A DNA stretch of 64,000 bases from Myxococcota bacterium. Lineage in GTDB: Bacteria > Myxococcota_A > Polyangia > Polyangiales > Sandaracinaceae. Position numbers and translations under genes: made by a program. The notes under the pieces were generated by a model. The model worked only from the letters and a program-made list of their open reading frames with translations, was not told where the DNA came from and did not search any database. This document shows, piece by piece, positions 42,101 to 53,918 of the stretch (position 1 is the stretch's first letter; the number at the start of each line of letters is the position of its first letter). Location of the stretch: contig JAYZQJ010000081.1 in assembly GCA_036149055.1 (NCBI GenBank), positions 1-64,000 of the forward strand. Direction: 5' to 3'.

Positions 42101-44122
42101 TCATCGACCGCAGCGGTTCTCGATCTCCTGGAAGTAGAAGGGGAGCTCGTCCCGCCACCACTCGCCGTCCCAGGGCCAGAGCTGATCTCCCTGCACGGCG
42201 ACGATGCGCCCGCCGGTGGGCGGCTCCATCGGGGCGGGGTTCGGGCGCTCGAGCTCCATGCGGCGCTGGGTGGCCAGCTCGAGCTCGATGGTGTCCATCT
42301 GGTTCATGCGCTCGCGCAGCTCGGCGACGACGCGAGCGAGGCGCTCGCGCGCCATCTCGCCCGTCCGGTCCACCGCGAGCGAGCGCAGGACGGCGAGGTC
42401 GGCGGCGACGCGGGTGTGGAGGCTCGTCTCGAGCGAGCCGGCGAGGACGCGGCCCAGGCGGCGCTGCTCGCGGTCGAGGGCCCGCACCTCCTCGAGGTGC
42501 CGGAGGAGCGTGCGCTCGTCGAAGGCGGCGCGCACCGCGGCGCGGGCGGGCCCCGGCACCCGGGAGTTGTGCGCGCGCACCGCGACGAGCATGCGGAAGG
42601 CGTCCTCGTTGCGCTGCGCCATGCGCAGGGCGCGCTCGGCGGCGTCGAGCTGCGGGTCGAAGCGGGCGTGGAAGCCCGAGAGGCCGTGCTCGACCGCGTC
42701 CCACTGACAGTGCTCGAACTGGATCATCGAGCGCACCACCAGCGCCTCCGGGTGCGCGCGCTCGCGGAAGTAGGGGGACTGGAGCGCGTGCACGTGGCCG
42801 AGGGCGCGGGCCGGCTGGCCGGCGACGTAGAGCGCCCAGGTCTCCTCGAAGAACGAGTCGAGCCAGTACTCCGACTCGAGCGGGATGTTGCGCCACGCGG
42901 CGATGGCGTGACCGAGCAGCTCGGAGGCGTGGGCGTCGCGCCCCGACGGCTGCTGCATCGCGAGGCTGTAGTAGAGCCGCGCCACGCTCATCCAGGCGAG
43001 GTCGCGCATGCGGGCCGGCTCGTCGTGGCCGCCGGTGCGACCGGACTCGACCGCATCGATCACCCGACCGAAGGCGCGCAGCGCGGGCTGGGCCGAGCGC
43101 ATCCGGACGTGGGCGATGCCCTCGAAGAAGCGCGCCTCGAGGCCATGCGGGCTCGACTCGGGCACGCCCGACAGGAGGGCGACCGCCTCGGCGAAGCGCC
43201 GCTCGCCGTAGCGCGCGCGGCCGAGGAGGTAGCGCAGGTGGTGGTAGTGACGACGCGTCTCACCTCGATCGAGGGCGCTGAGCTGGGCGGCGTCGTAGCG
43301 GCCGACCGAGGCGATCACCCCGCTCGGCTCCGGCAGCCGCTCGGCGAGCATCGCGAGCCAGGTGAGCGACGCGTCGAAGTAGGGGTGCGCCGCGCCGCGC
43401 TGGGTGACCTCGTCGAAGGCGGCCGCGGACGCGTGGTAGAGGCCCATGTGATAGAGGCACTTCGCGAGGAAGAACTCGGCTTGCGACACGCGGTCGGCGC
43501 GATCGCCGCTGCGCCCCTCGACCACGCGCTGGAGCGACACGGCGGCCTCGACGTAGCGCTCGCCGGCGTAGTCGCGCAGCGCCTCGGCCATCGTCTCGCT
43601 CGGCGCGCTCGGGCCGCTCGGGATCACCGGCACCGCGCCGACGTCGAGCTGGAGCGGCAGCCGCGCGACCGGGGCGTCGGCCGGCTTGGCGCGCCGCTCG
43701 ACCGGCGCGGCGACCGGGCGCGCGGTGGCGGCGGGCGCGGGGGTCGCGACCCGCTCGGGCGCGACCGAGGGCGCGGCGATCGAGGGCGCGGCGATCGGCG
43801 GCGCGGGAATCGAACGCGCAGGGCTCGAGGGCGTGGCGATCGACGCGCGCTCCGGGGGCGCCTTGGGCAGCGGGCCTCGCGCGACGGGCATATCCACCCG
43901 AAGCACGGCTCCGTCGAAGGCCAGTACGACGCCCAGCGCCAGCCCGACGCCGAGGGCCAGGACGGCGAGCGCCTTGCCGAGCAGCGCGGCGCCGCCGGCC
44001 GATCCGAGCGAGGCTCCGGCGCGGGTGAGGGTCGCGGCTCGGGCGTCGGCGAGGATCGCGGGATCGGGGGTCGCGCCGCGGAGCAGGTCCACGAACGCGT
44101 CGAGCTCGGCGTCGCGGCTCAT
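42101..44122 (-). CDS. Anti-sigma-like membrane protein with GltC-like TPR domain
   Basis: Short N-terminal cytoplasmic segment, TM helix, Pro/Ala linker, TPR region ending WPWDGEWWRDEL; ATG overlaps the ECF stop. Confidence 0.7.
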   Translation of the reverse strand: MSRDAELDAFVDLLRGATPDPAILADARAATLTRAGASLGSAGGAALLGKALAVLALGVGLALGVVLAFDGAVLRVDMPVARGPLPKAPPERASIATPSSPARSIPAPPIAAPSIAAPSVAPERVATPAPAATARPVAAPVERRAKPADAPVARLPLQLDVGAVPVIPSGPSAPSETMAEALRDYAGERYVEAAVSLQRVVEGRSGDRADRVSQAEFFLAKCLYHMGLYHASAAAFDEVTQRGAAHPYFDASLTWLAMLAERLPEPSGVIASVGRYDAAQLSALDRGETRRHYHHLRYLLGRARYGERRFAEAVALLSGVPESSPHGLEARFFEGIAHVRMRSAQPALRAFGRVIDAVESGRTGGHDEPARMRDLAWMSVARLYYSLAMQQPSGRDAHASELLGHAIAAWRNIPLESEYWLDSFFEETWALYVAGQPARALGHVHALQSPYFRERAHPEALVVRSMIQFEHCQWDAVEHGLSGFHARFDPQLDAAERALRMAQRNEDAFRMLVAVRAHNSRVPGPARAAVRAAFDERTLLRHLEEVRALDREQRRLGRVLAGSLETSLHTRVAADLAVLRSLAVDRTGEMARERLARVVAELRERMNQMDTIELELATQRRMELERPNPAPMEPPTGGRIVAVQGDQLWPWDGEWWRDELPFYFQEIENRCGR

Positions 44123-44694
44123 CGCTCCACCTTCCCCTTCGCCTTCAGGCGCGCGAGCGCGCGGGAGACCTCGCGGCGCGCGGCGTAGAGCCGGGCGTAG
44201 GCCGTCTGCAGCGGGCAGCCCAGCGCCTCGGCGATCTCGCTCATCGGCTGCTGCTCGACCTCGTAGAGCACGAAGATCGCGCGCTTGTCCTCGTCGAGCG
44301 CCTCCAGGATCTCGAAGGCCGCGGCGAGCGCGCGCGCCTTCTCCAGATCGTCGTGCGGGGTGCGGCGCTCGACCTCGAGCTCCGGCGGCTCGGCCACGCT
44401 GTCCTCTCGGCGCCGCGCGGCGTCGCGGCGGAGGCTCATCGCCTTGCGCACGCAGATCGCGTAGAGCCACGCGCGCAGCTTCGACGGCTCCTCGAGCTCG
44501 CCGAGGCGACGGTGCACCACGAGGAACACCTCCTGGAGCGCGTCGCCGAGCTCGCGCTCGCGCACCCCGAGGAGGCGGAGCGTGCGGCCGACGTAGGGCG
44601 CGTGGGCGTCGAAGACCTCGGCGAGCTCGGGGCCCGCCGCGTCTCCGGCGGCCACGGCCTCGAGGCTCTCTTCGAGTGACGCGTCCACGCCCAT
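44119..44694 (-). CDS. ECF-type RNA polymerase sigma factor
   Basis: DALQEVFLVVHRRL (region 2), AWLYAI, RAIFVLYEVE..M.EIAEALGCP (region 4). Confidence 0.92.
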   Translation of the reverse strand: MGVDASLEESLEAVAAGDAAGPELAEVFDAHAPYVGRTLRLLGVRERELGDALQEVFLVVHRRLGELEEPSKLRAWLYAICVRKAMSLRRDAARRREDSVAEPPELEVERRTPHDDLEKARALAAAFEILEALDEDKRAIFVLYEVEQQPMSEIAEALGCPLQTAYARLYAARREVSRALARLKAKGKVER

Positions 44695-44790
44695 TCGTTC
44701 CCGGCGGGCCCCGATCTTTTGAAAGTTTTTTTCGGAGGCGTGGGGGAGATCCCGGCAACGCGCGCTCCGGGACCCCGTCATCGTGCCCCC

Positions 44791-45429
44791 GTGAGCGAGC
44801 CCGCGATCATCGGCGTCCTGCGCGAGTGCCTCGAGGCCGAGCTCCCCGGCCAGGCCTCGGGCGCGCTCTTTCGGGCCCTCTCGCGCTGGGGCTACGCCCC
44901 GCAGCGCTTCGTCGAGCTCGTCGACGTGATCCACGGCCCGCTGCGCGAGGAGTTGGCGGCCATCGTCGGCGACGCGCGGAGCCGCGCCCTCGTGAAGCGG
45001 CTCGAGGAGCGCCTCCGGATGTCGGAGATGCCCACCGGCGACGTCGGCCCCGCGCCGCGCGCCCGCTTCGAGGACGCGCCCACCCGGACCCTTCGCCGCG
45101 AGCGCGGGCCGCTCCCGGTGCAGGTGGTGGCGCAGACCAAGACGATGGCGATCCTCATCTCGACCGCGCTCGGCCCCGACCGGGTGAAGCCGTCACGCGA
45201 GCCGCGGGTGCTGCTCTTCGATCTCTCGGATCCGCCGCAGGCCTGGGATCCGACGCTGCAGCACGTGGCGTCCCGGGCCGACGTGACCCTGCTCTACGGG
45301 GCCGAGGTCGAGGGCGCCCGGGACCTCGAGGAGTGGCTGGTCGAGGGCGGCGCCGAGGTCCGCACGCTCACCTCCGACCACGGGATGGCGCCGATCCTCG
45401 ACGTGCTGCGCGCGCGTCAGAACCCGTAG
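44791..45429 (+). CDS. Hypothetical protein
   Basis: Coding-like ORF divergent from the ECF gene; GTG start at 44791. Confidence 0.6.
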   Translation: MSEPAIIGVLRECLEAELPGQASGALFRALSRWGYAPQRFVELVDVIHGPLREELAAIVGDARSRALVKRLEERLRMSEMPTGDVGPAPRARFEDAPTRTLRRERGPLPVQVVAQTKTMAILISTALGPDRVKPSREPRVLLFDLSDPPQAWDPTLQHVASRADVTLLYGAEVEGARDLEEWLVEGGAEVRTLTSDHGMAPILDVLRARQNP

Positions 45430-48996: not shown

Positions 48997-49012
48997 TGGC
49001 ACGCCGGATGCT
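48997..49012 (+). promoter_or_regulatory. Sigma54 -24/-12 promoter
   Basis: TGGCACGCCGGATGCT (GG-N10-GC); the -12 C lies 14 nt before ATG 49025. Confidence 0.7.
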
Positions 49013-49024
49013 CTCCGCCGGGGC

Positions 49025-49432
49025 ATGCAGGACGAACGCGTCTCCGCTCGCACCCGGGCGCTGCGCGCCGCGCGGGCCATGAGCATCGCCGCGGCGCTCG
49101 CGCTCGGCCCCGGCTGCTCGATGAGCCACGACTCGCTCGACTCGGGCGTCGACGCGGCCCCGCCGGTAACGGACGGCGGGATCGTCGACAGTGGGCCGGT
49201 CGACAGCGGGCCGGTCGACAGCGGCCCGGTCGACAGCGGCGTCGACAGCGGGCTCGCCGACTCGGGGATCGACGCGGGGACCTGCGAAGACATCGAGTGG
49301 ACCGGCAGCTGCTGCGAGCCGATGCCCCGCGAATGCTGCGAGACGACCTTCGTCGGCGAGTGGATCGAGGAGTCGGGCTGCTGCGCCACCTGCATCGAGG
49401 GCCCGCTGACCCCGCCGTCGGCGCCGGTCTGA
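49025..49432 (+). CDS. Cys-rich lipopeptide 1 (candidate precursor)
   Basis: RALRAAR leader, lipobox-like GC, VDSGP repeats, C-x8-CC-x6-CC-x13-CC-x2-C core, GPLTPPSAPV tail. Confidence 0.85.
   Translation: MQDERVSARTRALRAARAMSIAAALALGPGCSMSHDSLDSGVDAAPPVTDGGIVDSGPVDSGPVDSGPVDSGVDSGLADSGIDAGTCEDIEWTGSCCEPMPRECCETTFVGEWIEESGCCATCIEGPLTPPSAPV
49184..49252 (+). repeat. Tandem 12-15 bp repeats GTCGACAGYGG(SCCG) encoding VDSG(P)
   Basis: Five units visible in the sequence. Confidence 0.8.
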
Positions 49433-49443
49433 GAAGGAGAGCC

Positions 49444-49803
49444 ATGGAGACGGAACGAGAGAGCGCCCGGTCGCGGGCCCTGCGCGCGGCCCGGGTGATG
49501 AGCGTCGCGGCCTCGCTCGCGCTCGGCGCGGTGGGCTGCTCGATGAGCCACGCGACGGTCGACTCGGGGGTCGACGCGGGACCGAGCGGCGACGGCGCCG
49601 TGGCCGACTCGGGGGTCGACTCCGGGATCGACTCGGGGGTCGACGCAGGAGCCTGCGAAGACATCGAGTGGACCGGCAGCTGCTGCGAGCCGATGCCCCG
49701 CGAGTGTTGCGAGACCGCCTTCGGAGGCGGCTGGGACGAGTCGGCCGAGTGCTGCTTCACCTGCGCCGAGGGCCCCCTGACCCCGCCGTCGGCCCCGGTC
49801 TGA
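49444..49803 (+). CDS. Cys-rich lipopeptide 2 (tandem paralog)
   Basis: AAGGAG RBS; same leader, Cys skeleton and tail as paralog 1; 52 nt identical block (49281-49332 vs 49652-49703). Confidence 0.87.
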   Translation: METERESARSRALRAARVMSVAASLALGAVGCSMSHATVDSGVDAGPSGDGAVADSGVDSGIDSGVDAGACEDIEWTGSCCEPMPRECCETAFGGGWDESAECCFTCAEGPLTPPSAPV

Positions 49804-49805
49804 GC

Positions 49806-50666
49806 GTGAGAGGAACCCTCCGGGTCGACGCGGGCGAGGGCCCGCTCCGGGCGCAGCACGACCGGCTGATGCGCACCGCGCTGCGGCGGGGCGACGGGGA
49901 TCCCGAGGCCGCCCTCGAGGGCGCGGCGCTCGAGGGCGACTACCGGCCCGAGACGCTGGCCTACGCGCGGGGCGCCTGGCTCGAGCGCATGCGGCGCGAG
50001 CACCACTCGGCGGCGGTCTTCTCGCAGATGCTGCCGCAGCTGATGGACGCCGGGGCCACGCTCGACACCAAGACCGCGGTGCTGCGCATGGCGATGGAGG
50101 AGCTGCGCCACGCGGGGCTCTGCGGCGGCGTGGTGAGGCTGCTCGGCGCCGAGCCGAGCCTCGAGACCGAGCTGATGCCCGCGCCGCTGCCGCTCCACGA
50201 GAAGGCCACGCCGCGGGAGCGAGCGCTCCGGAACGTGCTCTTCGTCGGGGTGAACGAGACGATCGCGGTGGCCCTCCTGACCGAGGAGCGCGAGCTGACC
50301 CGCGAGCCCGCGATCGCGGCGGTGCTCGAGCAGCTGGTGGCCGACGAGGTGGGCCACGCGAAGCTCGGCTGGACGTACCTCGCCGAGACCTGGCCGACCC
50401 TCGACGCGGCGCAGCGGGCGCGCACCGACGCCTACCTCCCCTACGCCTTCGCCTACCTCGAGGAGTCGCTGATGGGGCCGATCGCGCGGCTCCGCTACGA
50501 CGACGCGCGGCGGGACGAGCTGAACGCGCTGGGCCTCCCCGCCCCTCAGGACCTGCGGGAGCTCTTCTACGCGGCGATGCAGCAGGCGGTGCTCGCGCCG
50601 CTGGACGCCCAGGGGCTGGCCGCCTCGGAGGGCTGGGCCGCGCGCGCGGCTACCCGAGCCAGGTGA
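49806..50666 (+). CDS. Ferritin-like di-iron domain protein
   Basis: Ligand pattern E (REHHS)...EELRH...NE (NETIA)...DEVGH; GTG starts 2 nt after the paralog 2 stop. Confidence 0.82.
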   Translation: MRGTLRVDAGEGPLRAQHDRLMRTALRRGDGDPEAALEGAALEGDYRPETLAYARGAWLERMRREHHSAAVFSQMLPQLMDAGATLDTKTAVLRMAMEELRHAGLCGGVVRLLGAEPSLETELMPAPLPLHEKATPRERALRNVLFVGVNETIAVALLTEERELTREPAIAAVLEQLVADEVGHAKLGWTYLAETWPTLDAAQRARTDAYLPYAFAYLEESLMGPIARLRYDDARRDELNALGLPAPQDLRELFYAAMQQAVLAPLDAQGLAASEGWAARAATRAR

Positions 50667-51482: not shown

Positions 51483-53918
51483 TCACTCGACCGAGATCAA
51501 CGCGTCCACGTCGAACACCCCGCCGCCGATGAGGCGGGCCTGGCTGCCGCGGGCGTGGGCGTCGAAGCCCATCACGCCGGCCGCGCGGTAGTGGTCGTAG
51601 TCCTGCCCGAAGCGGTCCTCCATGCGCATCTCGAGGTCGAGGCGCACGTCCATGGACTCGGGGCGGGTCAGGGCGAGGAGCGCGTAGGCGACCGCGGCCT
51701 CGGGGCGCACGCCGTCGAGGTCGTCGGCGTCGTCCACGAGCCCGTCGAAGAGCTCGCGCACCACCTGGGAGCGGGCCTGCACGACCGAGCGCGCGGTGGC
51801 GGCGTCGTAGTCGACGCGGTCTCCGCTCAGCGGCACGTCGACCGCGACCGCCCGGCCGCCGATCGCGCCGAGGCCGTCGATGCGCGCCCGCTCGACCGCG
51901 ACGAGGCGCTCGTAGGCGTCGGCCTGCGCCTCGAAGCGCGCGACCATGGCGTCGAGGGCCCGGTCGTCGCCCAGCCCCGCGCGCTGCGCGTCGACGTCGT
52001 CCGCCCGGTCGACGGTGACCGCCGCGAGCACGCCGAGGACCGCCGCGCGGAGCCGCTCGCCTTCGCCCGAGGTCAGCGCCCGGGAGAGGCTCGCGTCGTC
52101 CATCCGGTAGCCGAGCACCACGCTGCTCTCGGGGCCGACCAGCGACGCGTTCGGCTCGGCGACCGCCTGGTAGCGCACCCGGAGCTCGACCGCCGCGCGG
52201 AGGAGCGCGGTCATCTCGGGCTCGAGCCCGGCGCCCTCGATCGCGGCGAGCGCGTCGGCCTGGGGCCCGGTCACCTCGCGGTCGTCGAGCACGTCGGTGC
52301 GGCAGGCGGCGCCGGGGCCCACGCCGCCGGGGCAGACGCGCTCGACGTGCCGCTCGATGGCGTTGCCGTGCGCCTCGATCTCGGCCAGCAGCGCCGGGCC
52401 GCCGACCGCGGTGATCAGCGCGTCGAGGTGATCGAGCGTGGTGTCGCGCTCCATCCACTCGTCGCCCTCGAGCACCTGCACGAAGAGGTTCACCTCGGAC
52501 TCGACCGCGCGGCCGTCGGCGTCGAAGCGCAGGCCGGCGAGCGAGACCCGCTCGTGGCCGTGGGTCTGGAAGAACCAGCCGCCCTCGCGGTGGAGCGAGT
52601 CGAAGAGGAGCTCCTGGGCGCCGCCGGGGGTGTCCACGCGGACGCTGCCCTCCTCGGCGATGGTGGTCTGGAAGAAGCGCATGCCGAACAGCTCGACGCC
52701 GGCGTGCGACACCGCCGAGAGGCCCGAGCGCGACACGTCGTACTCGAGGGTCACGCCGGCCTCGCCCCGCGCCGAGAGCGCCTGCGCCAGCCGCACGTCG
52801 CCGCGCGCCGCCTGGGACAGCGCCTCGGCGAGCCGCGGGTCCTCCTCGCTCAGGTCGAAGCGCAGCCGGATCACGCTCATGCGGGTGCTCCGGCCGGTCC
52901 GCTCGACCTCGGCGCTCACCATGCTCAGCCGCTCGTTCAGCTGGCGCTGGAGGGCGCGGTCGAGGAGCCGGCCGAGGTCCACGTCGCGGCCGCCGAGCGA
53001 GACGTTGGTCCGCGCGAGCCCGCTCACGCCCCAGCCGTCCTCGAGCGCGAGGCGCGCCGAGCGCACGCTGCTCCGGTCGGTGCCGACGTCGATGACCGCC
53101 TCGTCGCCCTCGAGCCGGACCACCTGCACGTCGAGCTCGCCGGCGATCTGGGCCCGAAGCGCGGCCGAGACGACGAGGCTGTAGGTGAGGCTCCCGGGGT
53201 CGGCGACCACGATCGGCACGCCCGCGCCCACGTTCACGCCGAAGGCGCCCTCGCCGCGCAGCGCGAACGCCTCGCCGGGCCGCATCGCGCGCACGTCCTC
53301 GAGGTCGCGCGGGGCCACGAAGCCGCGGGTCTCGCGCAGCGCGGCGTAGATCGCCTCGGGCGAGGTCCCCGCGTCGCGCCGGGTGGCGTGGATCGCCCGG
53401 CCCTCGACCGAGCCGCGCAGCCCGAGCGCCGCCGAGCCGTCGAAGCCGTCGCCGTCGATGGCGAAGCCGTGGTCGAGCCCGGCGTCGAGCGCGAAGCGGC
53501 TCTCCACGAAGACGTCGTCCTCGCTCGCCCGGAGGTGGCGGCGCCGCGTCTCGGTGACGGTCACCGAGAGCTCGCGCTCGCCGAAGCGGGCCAGCAGCCC
53601 GGCGCCCAGCGCGTCGAGGTCCTCGACCAGCGGCTCCTCGGCCGCCGTCTCCGCGAGCCCGAAGGCGGTCACCTCGCCGATCTCGACGCCGACGCCGTCG
53701 CCCGAGAGCGCGTCGTTCAGCCCCTCGCTGGCCAGCCCGGTGCCGCGGGCGCTCAGATCCGTCAGGTCGAGCTCGCGCAGGTCGTCGTAGAGGGCCCGGA
53801 TCGAGTCGAGGCCGTCGCACTTTCCGGTGCAGGTGACCGCGCGCGACTCGGGCGCGGGCCCGGTCTCGGCGCAGGCGGAGAGGAGGAGAGCGAGGAGAAG
53901 AATGCAGCGCTGGGTCAT
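51483..53918 (-). CDS. Large hypothetical lipoprotein (811 aa)
   Basis: Lipobox LLSAC, CTGKCDG motif, long coding-like ORF. Confidence 0.8.
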   Translation of the reverse strand: MTQRCILLLALLLSACAETGPAPESRAVTCTGKCDGLDSIRALYDDLRELDLTDLSARGTGLASEGLNDALSGDGVGVEIGEVTAFGLAETAAEEPLVEDLDALGAGLLARFGERELSVTVTETRRRHLRASEDDVFVESRFALDAGLDHGFAIDGDGFDGSAALGLRGSVEGRAIHATRRDAGTSPEAIYAALRETRGFVAPRDLEDVRAMRPGEAFALRGEGAFGVNVGAGVPIVVADPGSLTYSLVVSAALRAQIAGELDVQVVRLEGDEAVIDVGTDRSSVRSARLALEDGWGVSGLARTNVSLGGRDVDLGRLLDRALQRQLNERLSMVSAEVERTGRSTRMSVIRLRFDLSEEDPRLAEALSQAARGDVRLAQALSARGEAGVTLEYDVSRSGLSAVSHAGVELFGMRFFQTTIAEEGSVRVDTPGGAQELLFDSLHREGGWFFQTHGHERVSLAGLRFDADGRAVESEVNLFVQVLEGDEWMERDTTLDHLDALITAVGGPALLAEIEAHGNAIERHVERVCPGGVGPGAACRTDVLDDREVTGPQADALAAIEGAGLEPEMTALLRAAVELRVRYQAVAEPNASLVGPESSVVLGYRMDDASLSRALTSGEGERLRAAVLGVLAAVTVDRADDVDAQRAGLGDDRALDAMVARFEAQADAYERLVAVERARIDGLGAIGGRAVAVDVPLSGDRVDYDAATARSVVQARSQVVRELFDGLVDDADDLDGVRPEAAVAYALLALTRPESMDVRLDLEMRMEDRFGQDYDHYRAAGVMGFDAHARGSQARLIGGGVFDVDALISVE

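Follow-up and report, generated by a model that had tools for sequence, protein, structure and literature searches.

The 64,000-nt stretch analysed here (the window) carries on its plus strand what we read as a three-gene cassette, in which two predicted lipoprotein precursors are followed by one predicted cytoplasmic di-iron oxidase. The genome measures 9.9 Mb at 73% GC, the GC3 of the cassette is 0.93-0.97 across the three ORFs, and those of its homologs that bear names belong to Myxococcota or Polyangiales. The features of the locus are:

48997 to 49012, plus strand: sigma54-type -24/-12 box, TGGCACGCCGGATGCT, read as TGGCACG-N4-ATGCT and lying 12 nt 5' of the first ATG
49025 to 49432, plus strand: precursor A, ATG start, 135 aa, with RALRAA leader, Cys31, DSG linker, 8-Cys domain and tail GPLTPPSAPV
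49025 to 49117, plus strand: leader and predicted SPII signal of precursor A, ending at Cys31 (leader profile)
49400 to 49429, plus strand: tail of precursor A, Gly126-Val135 (GPLTPPSAPV), the proposed oxidation site and follower
49433 to 49439, plus strand: Shine-Dalgarno-like GAAGGAG ahead of precursor B, from the sequence
49444 to 49803, plus strand: precursor B, ATG start, 119 aa, anatomy as in A, with Cys32 and the tail Gly110 at 49771
49806 to 50666, plus strand: ferritin-like di-iron protein without signal, GTG start, 286 aa, 2 nt past the stop of precursor B

A 305-aa start of the enzyme gene (P0004), which would overlap precursor B, was rejected because homologs start at the GTG at 49806. 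In a contig of run X1 the gap separating precursor B from the enzyme gene is longer by 12 bases (window 49803-49806), and the 2-nt spacing is therefore not fixed among close strains. In the RNA runs (four of eight listed were compared; all contigs), coverage is equally deep over the flanks and the cassette. Elsewhere in the window, the minus strand encodes at 42101-44934 an ECF sigma factor (44119-44934) and then a long frame without Pfam match that is anti-sigma- or TPR-like, and at 51483-53918 an 811-aa predicted lipoprotein with CTGKCDG near its start and no family match.

The initial annotation had placed the genes in a probable sigma54 operon behind a TGGCAC..TGC box, and such control remains probable for the window itself: the box at 48997-49012 departs from the consensus TGGCACG-N4-TTGC (GG-N10-GC) by one mismatch, its spacing fits a -24/-12 element, it is one of 15 sites with the strict sigma54 pattern in the 9.9-Mb genome (both strands counted), and rpoN was found in the genome. 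In the relatives L081 and L082 a comparable box lies 12-13 nt 5' of the ATG. The box does not, however, recur across the family; a medium sigma54 pattern is found in just 5 of 103 upstream regions, against 0 of 99 regions further upstream and 1 of 103 reversed regions, and sigma54 control is thus probable only for the branch comprising the window and its nearest relatives. An mRNA initiated from this box would be almost leaderless. A sigma70 promoter or a terminator was also looked for, and none was found.

The two precursors are 66% identical and, as first described, are adjacent paralogs of 135 and 119 aa with a RALRAAR motif and a lipobox-like GC (Cys31 in A, Cys32 in B). Both also have eight further Cys at spacings of 8, 0, 6, 0, 13, 0 and 2 (C-x8-CC-x6-CC-x13-CC-x2-C) and end in EGPLTPPSAPV. 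A lipoprotein signal, defined by pattern as a basic N-region, a hydrophobic stretch and a lipobox Cys, is present in both and in 122 distinct partners of related enzymes. The A-L-R-A-A columns of the leader are conserved in 96-117 of these 122 partners, and the pattern [RK]A[LM][RH]AA occurs in 68 of them versus 1 of 547 lipoprotein-like ORFs of the genome, namely precursor B; when the leader profile was run over the genome, only the two window precursor genes rose above the inclusion threshold. The window leaders read RTRALRAA and RSRALRAA, and Tat export of the window peptides was rejected on account of the absence of twin Arg in both signals. RR.?AL occurs in 47 of the 122 partner leaders.

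At the other end of the precursors, G-P-x-x-P is found in all 144 ORFs picked by the leader alone, by means of a leader profile that was built from tail-selected sequences; in the pattern-selected set G and P are invariant by construction, and it is the leader-selected set alone that tests their invariance. The residue before the tail Gly varies (W in 79, P in 47 and E in 7 of 145) and between 7 and 42 residues separate this Gly from the C-terminus, as would be expected of a follower that is discarded. The residue two before the Gly is always P, V, A, I or L, and the Pro residues of the tail are conserved as strongly as the Gly. The GPLTPPSAPV tail, which had been called invariant, is identical in the window pair; its complete form is otherwise common only to the nearest relative, L081, and the family as a whole shares no more than G-P-x-x-P(-P). 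W-clade partners such as L046, L054 and L125 have C-terminal EVA or GVA endings (29/120), which probably do no more than encode the ribosome-binding site of the enzyme gene that overlaps them.

The middle of the partners varies in length, linker and Cys pattern. Between lipobox and tail Gly, all 122 partners have an even number of Cys (4 in 62, 6 in 31, 8 in 28 and 10 in 1), although these partners include relatives and so are not independent; three further partners have none (L168) or two (L174 and L175), and in L175 these two lie far from the tail. A Cys usually stands 3-8 residues ahead of the tail Gly. The eight-Cys skeleton is therefore not a trait of the family. The even counts point to disulfides made after export. 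The partner of L168 (1214-1570, counted on the minus strand) has its lipobox Cys followed by four residues and then GPPAPP, so that the tail is kept where the Cys domain is absent. The acidic DSG linker is likewise present in both window peptides, but it is uninformative, since DSG/DAG linkers are common among the lipoproteins of this genome. What stays invariant in the partners is the RALRAA leader together with the Gly-Pro tail. In L015, L035, L022 and L025 one enzyme goes with an array of 2-4 precursors, some of them without the acidic linker and 3' of the enzyme. The best ESM Atlas feature for precursor B scored 0.82, under the bar, and a cluster labelled conotoxin (0.76) was not counted as evidence.

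The third gene, recognized at the outset as a ferritin-like gene that starts 2 nt on, with a full ligand set and no signal peptide, bears out that description. Its ligands are E65, E99xxH102, E151 and E181xxH184, in the E/ExxH/E/ExxH arrangement of a four-helix bundle, and all six are present throughout the 118 sequences compared. H131 is found in 91 of 91 members of the GPxxPP group and is not conserved in the sister clades, and the same is true of R142 and N143. The N-terminus is a beta-strand with no hydrophobic signal; the rest of the AlphaFold2 model (pLDDT 96.5) is almost all helix and forms a ferritin-like bundle. Fold comparison of this model by VIA gave as best match the PaaA-like SSO1313 (Z 17.1, rmsd 2.7, 209 aligned residues), followed by an ADO-like protein (Z 16.8), PaaA (16.6), R2 (16.3) and MMOH (15.8), while AurF/CmlI (Z 10.7-10.9) and ferritins and Dps (about 10) scored far lower. 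Given this gap and the six invariant ligands, the model assigns the enzyme to the oxygenase-type and not the storage-type ferritin folds; it is thus an oxygenase-type di-metal protein with a putative activity and with Fe or Mn as its probable metal. Known ferritin-like di-iron oxygenases take small molecules, acyl chains or residues of their own as substrates and are not known to modify an exported peptide partner.

More specific identities were considered and set aside. The only Pfam match of the enzyme is AurF (PF11583; E 5.8e-5, 22.8 bits versus a cut-off of 29.6). AurF has an extra His ligand four residues before the Glu of its second ExxH. The position is L in 44 and I in 32 of 76 members here, and an AurF N-oxygenase was rejected for this reason, for the sub-cut-off score and for the low Z. 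An MNIO was rejected in view of the helical ferritin-like model and the absence of any MNIO model match in NCBIfam among 76 members. A PaaA-type multicomponent monooxygenase was discarded too: TIGR02156 matched weakly in 2 of 76, and the four largest neighbour clusters include no partner subunit. NCBIfam has no family for the window proteins and gave only stray weak matches among 76 enzymes and 76 cores; no model of NCBIfam or Pfam covers either partner above cut-off. A PDB sequence search returned no useful match (best E 0.11), and Foldseek returned nothing under E 0.001.

The related loci fetched number 160, namely the top 80 out of 233 and the top 80 out of 174 confirmed. In the 82 that have at least 1.5 kb on each side, we sought an ORF with the pattern Cys...GPxx[PA]P and found it directly upstream of the enzyme in 67, within 4 kb in 7 (5 of these on the opposite strand), fused in frame in 3 and absent in 5; after removal of two duplicates the figures are 65, 7, 3 and 5 of 80. 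L077, one of the five first scored as lacking it, has two partners with WGPPMP. The supposed link between the enzyme and GP-x-x-PP peptides is thus kept in 78 of the 82 well-flanked loci, which have a leader-lipobox-GPxxP(P) partner at most 4 kb away or fused. For all 160 loci the same four classes hold 122, 11, 3 and 24, many of the 24 being on cut contigs. Cultured carriers include Minicystis rosea (L043), Chondromyces apiculatus (L046) and Nannocystis exedens (L059). The same pattern has 8 matches in the 9.9 Mb of this genome, of which 2 are the window genes and 6 are background. Of 120 adjacent pairs, 69 have an ATGA in which the stop overlaps the start, and in 108 the gap is at most 20 nt; one enzyme is often shared by several precursors, up to four.

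A second sample was chosen by enzyme score alone. A relative is carried by 103 of 201 sampled genomes of the class, with up to 12 matches each, and 40 of the listed matches were extracted (17 top-scoring, 23 lower-scoring). The tail is present in 16 of the 17 top-scoring loci and in none of the 23 lower-scoring ones as judged by a filter that let 4 true cases slip as well. The remaining top-scoring locus, L176 (1187-1549, plus strand), has no Cys core and instead three YDGG-x-x-G...NPD repeats, its enzyme being close to the GPxxPP group. A search of the 201 genomes with the peptide profile, which is insensitive, gave matches in 7 genomes, and all 6 matches outside this genome lie beside or inside a top enzyme match.

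The pairing extends to genes that are not neighbours. In L009, L021 and L069, three more of the five loci first scored as lacking a partner, the partner is unlinked in the same genome, with the tails VPGPFVPP, VPGPFVAP and PWGPPAPP, and in 3 of 3 cases the tail is of the type found in the nearest neighbours on the enzyme tree. The presence or absence of W before the Gly requires 1 change on this tree versus a mean of 28 for shuffled labels, though kin share labels; the split fits a recognition pocket and can also reflect shared descent. L065, the last of the five and on a side branch, has a Gly-rich partner. Taken together, the comparative sequence data support the view that enzyme and peptides form a conserved functional pair. 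As to other neighbours, LysR regulators of two kinds adjoin the cassette in 15 of 80 loci (L043, L045, L046, L049 and seven more; the second kind in L014, L019, L031 and L037), and the other large clusters consist of histidine kinases (8) and of a molybdopterin enzyme (7, in one lineage). No reductase or ferredoxin gene was found among the recurring neighbours.

Natural fusions join the two partners in a single chain. All 26 fetched homologs of at least 330 aa have the order Cys domain-WGPPxPP-enzyme. Of the 26, 22 have a called lipobox, and among these the Cys number is even in 22 of 22 and twin Arg occurs in 3 of 22. Fusion status changes 5 times on the enzyme tree. The linkers of 18-30 residues are such as plain stop loss would leave, and the fusions therefore need not act in cis. 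In the model of one natural fusion the leader has pLDDT 95 and 86, the Cys domain about 90 and the linker about 40, whereas the tail blocks reach only 62 and 64, with residues 140-142 below 50. Three rigid superpositions of this model on single-domain structures start at residue 7-11; since they take in the leader from there onward, the leader helix seems to be packed on the enzyme bundle, which we regard as a hint only.

Paralogs and sister clades show how far the arrangement varies. A ferritin-like paralog in this genome (G000 C123:1619-2867, plus strand) follows a Cys-free lipoprotein with repeated x-N-E-P motifs, and in its clade (L184, L185, L187, L188, L190, L191, L195, L200) the partners have repeated N-x-G-P or N-x-P-P. 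In general, the sister enzyme clades pair with partners that lack Cys and repeat N-x-G-P, N-x-P-P or N-E-P. A third paralog (G000 C198:14671-16451, plus strand) follows a lipoprotein that has a DAG linker and is rich in Cys at its end (...FCCVPREP). The last 478 codons of G000 C227:84186-87845 (minus strand) encode a fused lipoprotein with 6 Cys, the sequence C-I-G-R-R-P-E-G-L and a ferritin-like domain with all six ligands; its Cys-x-Gly-x-x-Pro echoes the GPxxPP tail.

Two recently described systems provide the closest analogies. In the DAG-RiPPs (DybA/DybH, NedA/NedBC), as far as the main text of PMC13056109 describes them, cytoplasmic iron enzymes modify precursors with lipoprotein signals before export. 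They resemble the cassette in their SPII-type signal, lipobox Cys and conserved C-terminal motif, in the signal-less iron enzyme next door, and in the modification, which is placed before lipidation and export (PMC13056109). By sequence, the cassette has a lipoprotein signal, a tied signal-less enzyme and a core motif downstream of the lipobox. The DAG-RiPP enzymes are, however, TIM-barrel MNIOs (DUF692/ChrH) acting on CPACGMG and EGKCG, whereas the enzyme of the cassette is all-helical and ferritin-like; the cassette further differs in its GPxxPP motif, its apparently disulfide-bonded Cys and its natural fusions (PMC13056109). The word 'ferritin' does not occur in the main text of that paper. 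By this analogy, the cassette would work like a DAG-RiPP system and yet not be of MNIO type. In the second system, minviopeptin, the enzyme MicC cuts the N-Calpha bond at an internal Gly, the follower is dropped and a C-terminal amide is left; MovX and PAM are described alongside it in the available text of PMC12912966. MicC, a mononuclear alphaKG enzyme, works on a non-lipoprotein that is cross-linked and ADP-ribosylated, in contrast to the cassette, whose chemistry is only deduced (PMC12912966).

The fold is shared with SSO1313 (4mud), ADO-like proteins (6d9f, 5ux2), PaaA (3pvr), R2 (6y2n), MMOH (1fyz) and R2lox (4hr0), ferritin-like di-iron oxygenases that align with the enzyme at Z 15.1-17.1 and rmsd 2.7-4.2 A over 209-244 residues. 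The enzyme is like them in its 2-His/4-Glu ligand set with D/E-E-x-R-H, and unlike them in its sequence (12-13% identity) and in that no partner subunits recur. In the available text of a 2026 review, ferritin-like oxygenases are distinct from HDOs, and modification of ribosomal peptides is cited only for HDOs (PMC13108848). In our literature search, largely confined to papers outside subscription, neither this pair nor a ferritin-like RiPP maturase turned up.

The conservation of the pair and the oxygenase-type fold are best read as RiPP-like maturation before export, as initially annotated, giving a lipid-anchored RiPP that follows DAG-RiPP logic. That the enzyme modifies the precursor is, in our judgement, probable, and we favour the tail as the modified site with somewhat less assurance. 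The likeliest chemistry, which we put forward tentatively, is an N-Calpha cleavage at the tail Gly that, ahead of export, would leave a C-terminal amide. Such a cleavage would account for a Gly that never varies although the residue preceding it does, for the free length that follows, and for repeated fusions behind a Sec-type signal, and the presence of a folded di-iron domain behind a Sec signal would be most simply resolved by a cut at the tail. The genes would be co-expressed from one probable sigma54 promoter with translational coupling, and the enzyme likely holds the RALRAA leader helix, as suggested by the fusion model and by the specificity of the leader. Activation of O2 at the 2-His/4-Glu di-iron site would then lead to Calpha hydroxylation of the tail Gly and, by analogy with MicC, to collapse into ...C-x-E-NH2 and a glyoxylyl-Pro follower. 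Sec export, lipidation at Cys31 or Cys32 and the formation of four periplasmic disulfides would follow, and the predicted product is an amidated mini-protein, knotted by disulfides and tethered to the membrane on a flexible acidic stalk. Several points count against cleavage: the fusion model places the tail without confidence, the recurring neighbours include no electron-donor gene, and the known Gly-cleaving enzyme, MicC, is alphaKG-dependent and not ferritin-like, as far as the available text of PMC12912966 goes.

The tail may instead be oxidised and retained, by hydroxylation of Pro or of the -2 residue, desaturation or an aromatic cross-link, to yield a decorated surface lipoprotein. This outcome, which we hold unlikely though deserving of weight, accords with Pro residues as conserved as the Gly, with a -2 residue drawn only from P, V, A, I and L, and with the DAG-RiPP products, which keep their modified C-terminus (main text of PMC13056109); the repeated Asn/Pro motifs of the sister clades, in which Gly is not invariant, also suit retained decoration better than cleavage. 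It leaves the free length of 7-42 residues after the motif unexplained, however, and offers no account of how the di-iron domain of the 26 fusions, mostly without twin Arg, would pass through Sec.

A less likely case is that no modification takes place, the lipoprotein being an anchor or carrier for co-export and surface display, or the enzyme a metal- or oxygen-sensing holder that gates export. The fusions would then tether the enzyme outside directly, the GRRP-type paralog of this genome is fused too, and RR.?AL is found in over a third of the partner leaders; but co-export of a folded partner needs Tat, and neither the window leaders (RTRALRAA/RSRALRAA) nor most fusion leaders have the twin Arg, nor would this explain why several precursors, up to four, often go with one enzyme.

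We consider it improbable that the enzyme acts on the core Cys, by way of MNIO-like heterocycles or of thio-chemistry, and so produces a metal-binding peptide. The Cys that usually stands 3-8 residues before the Gly, and the Cys motifs on which the MNIOs of the DAG-RiPPs act (main text of PMC13056109), would suit such a target. Yet the counts are even in 122/122 partners and in 22/22 lipobox-called fusions, L168 keeps its tail without core Cys, L174 and L175 have only two, and the sister-clade partners have none; since the counts are even and some partners lack a Cys domain, the proposal of the initial annotation that the Cys-rich core is the modified part is probably wrong. An iron-storing or peroxide-detoxifying ferritin co-regulated with unrelated small lipoproteins in a stress module, for which the ferritin-like fold and the LysR regulators beside 15 of 80 loci could be cited, is hardly credible when ferritins and Dps score Z of about 10 versus 15-17 for oxygenases and R2, the type of tail goes with the enzyme clade also where the genes are unlinked, and in-frame fusions recur.

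If the enzyme modifies the tail, as we favour, this would add an enzyme class to RiPP biosynthesis and extend the lipid-RiPP idea of 2026 to a widespread two-gene unit, and one enzyme amidating any chain with a short GPxxPP tag would help to make amidated peptides. In a broader reading, which we think somewhat doubtful as a whole, these proteins would be a large unrecognised peptide-maturing class, in which the GPxxPP clade would be an oxidative, amidating protease that also excises itself from natural fusions and the sister clades, with their N-x-G-P, N-E-P and GRRP motifs, would extend the products to a conotoxin-like surface library of lipid-anchored amidated mini-proteins. Modification of the tail by the enzyme, if true, would also give a function to many of the 'ferritin-like domain-containing proteins' of myxobacteria.
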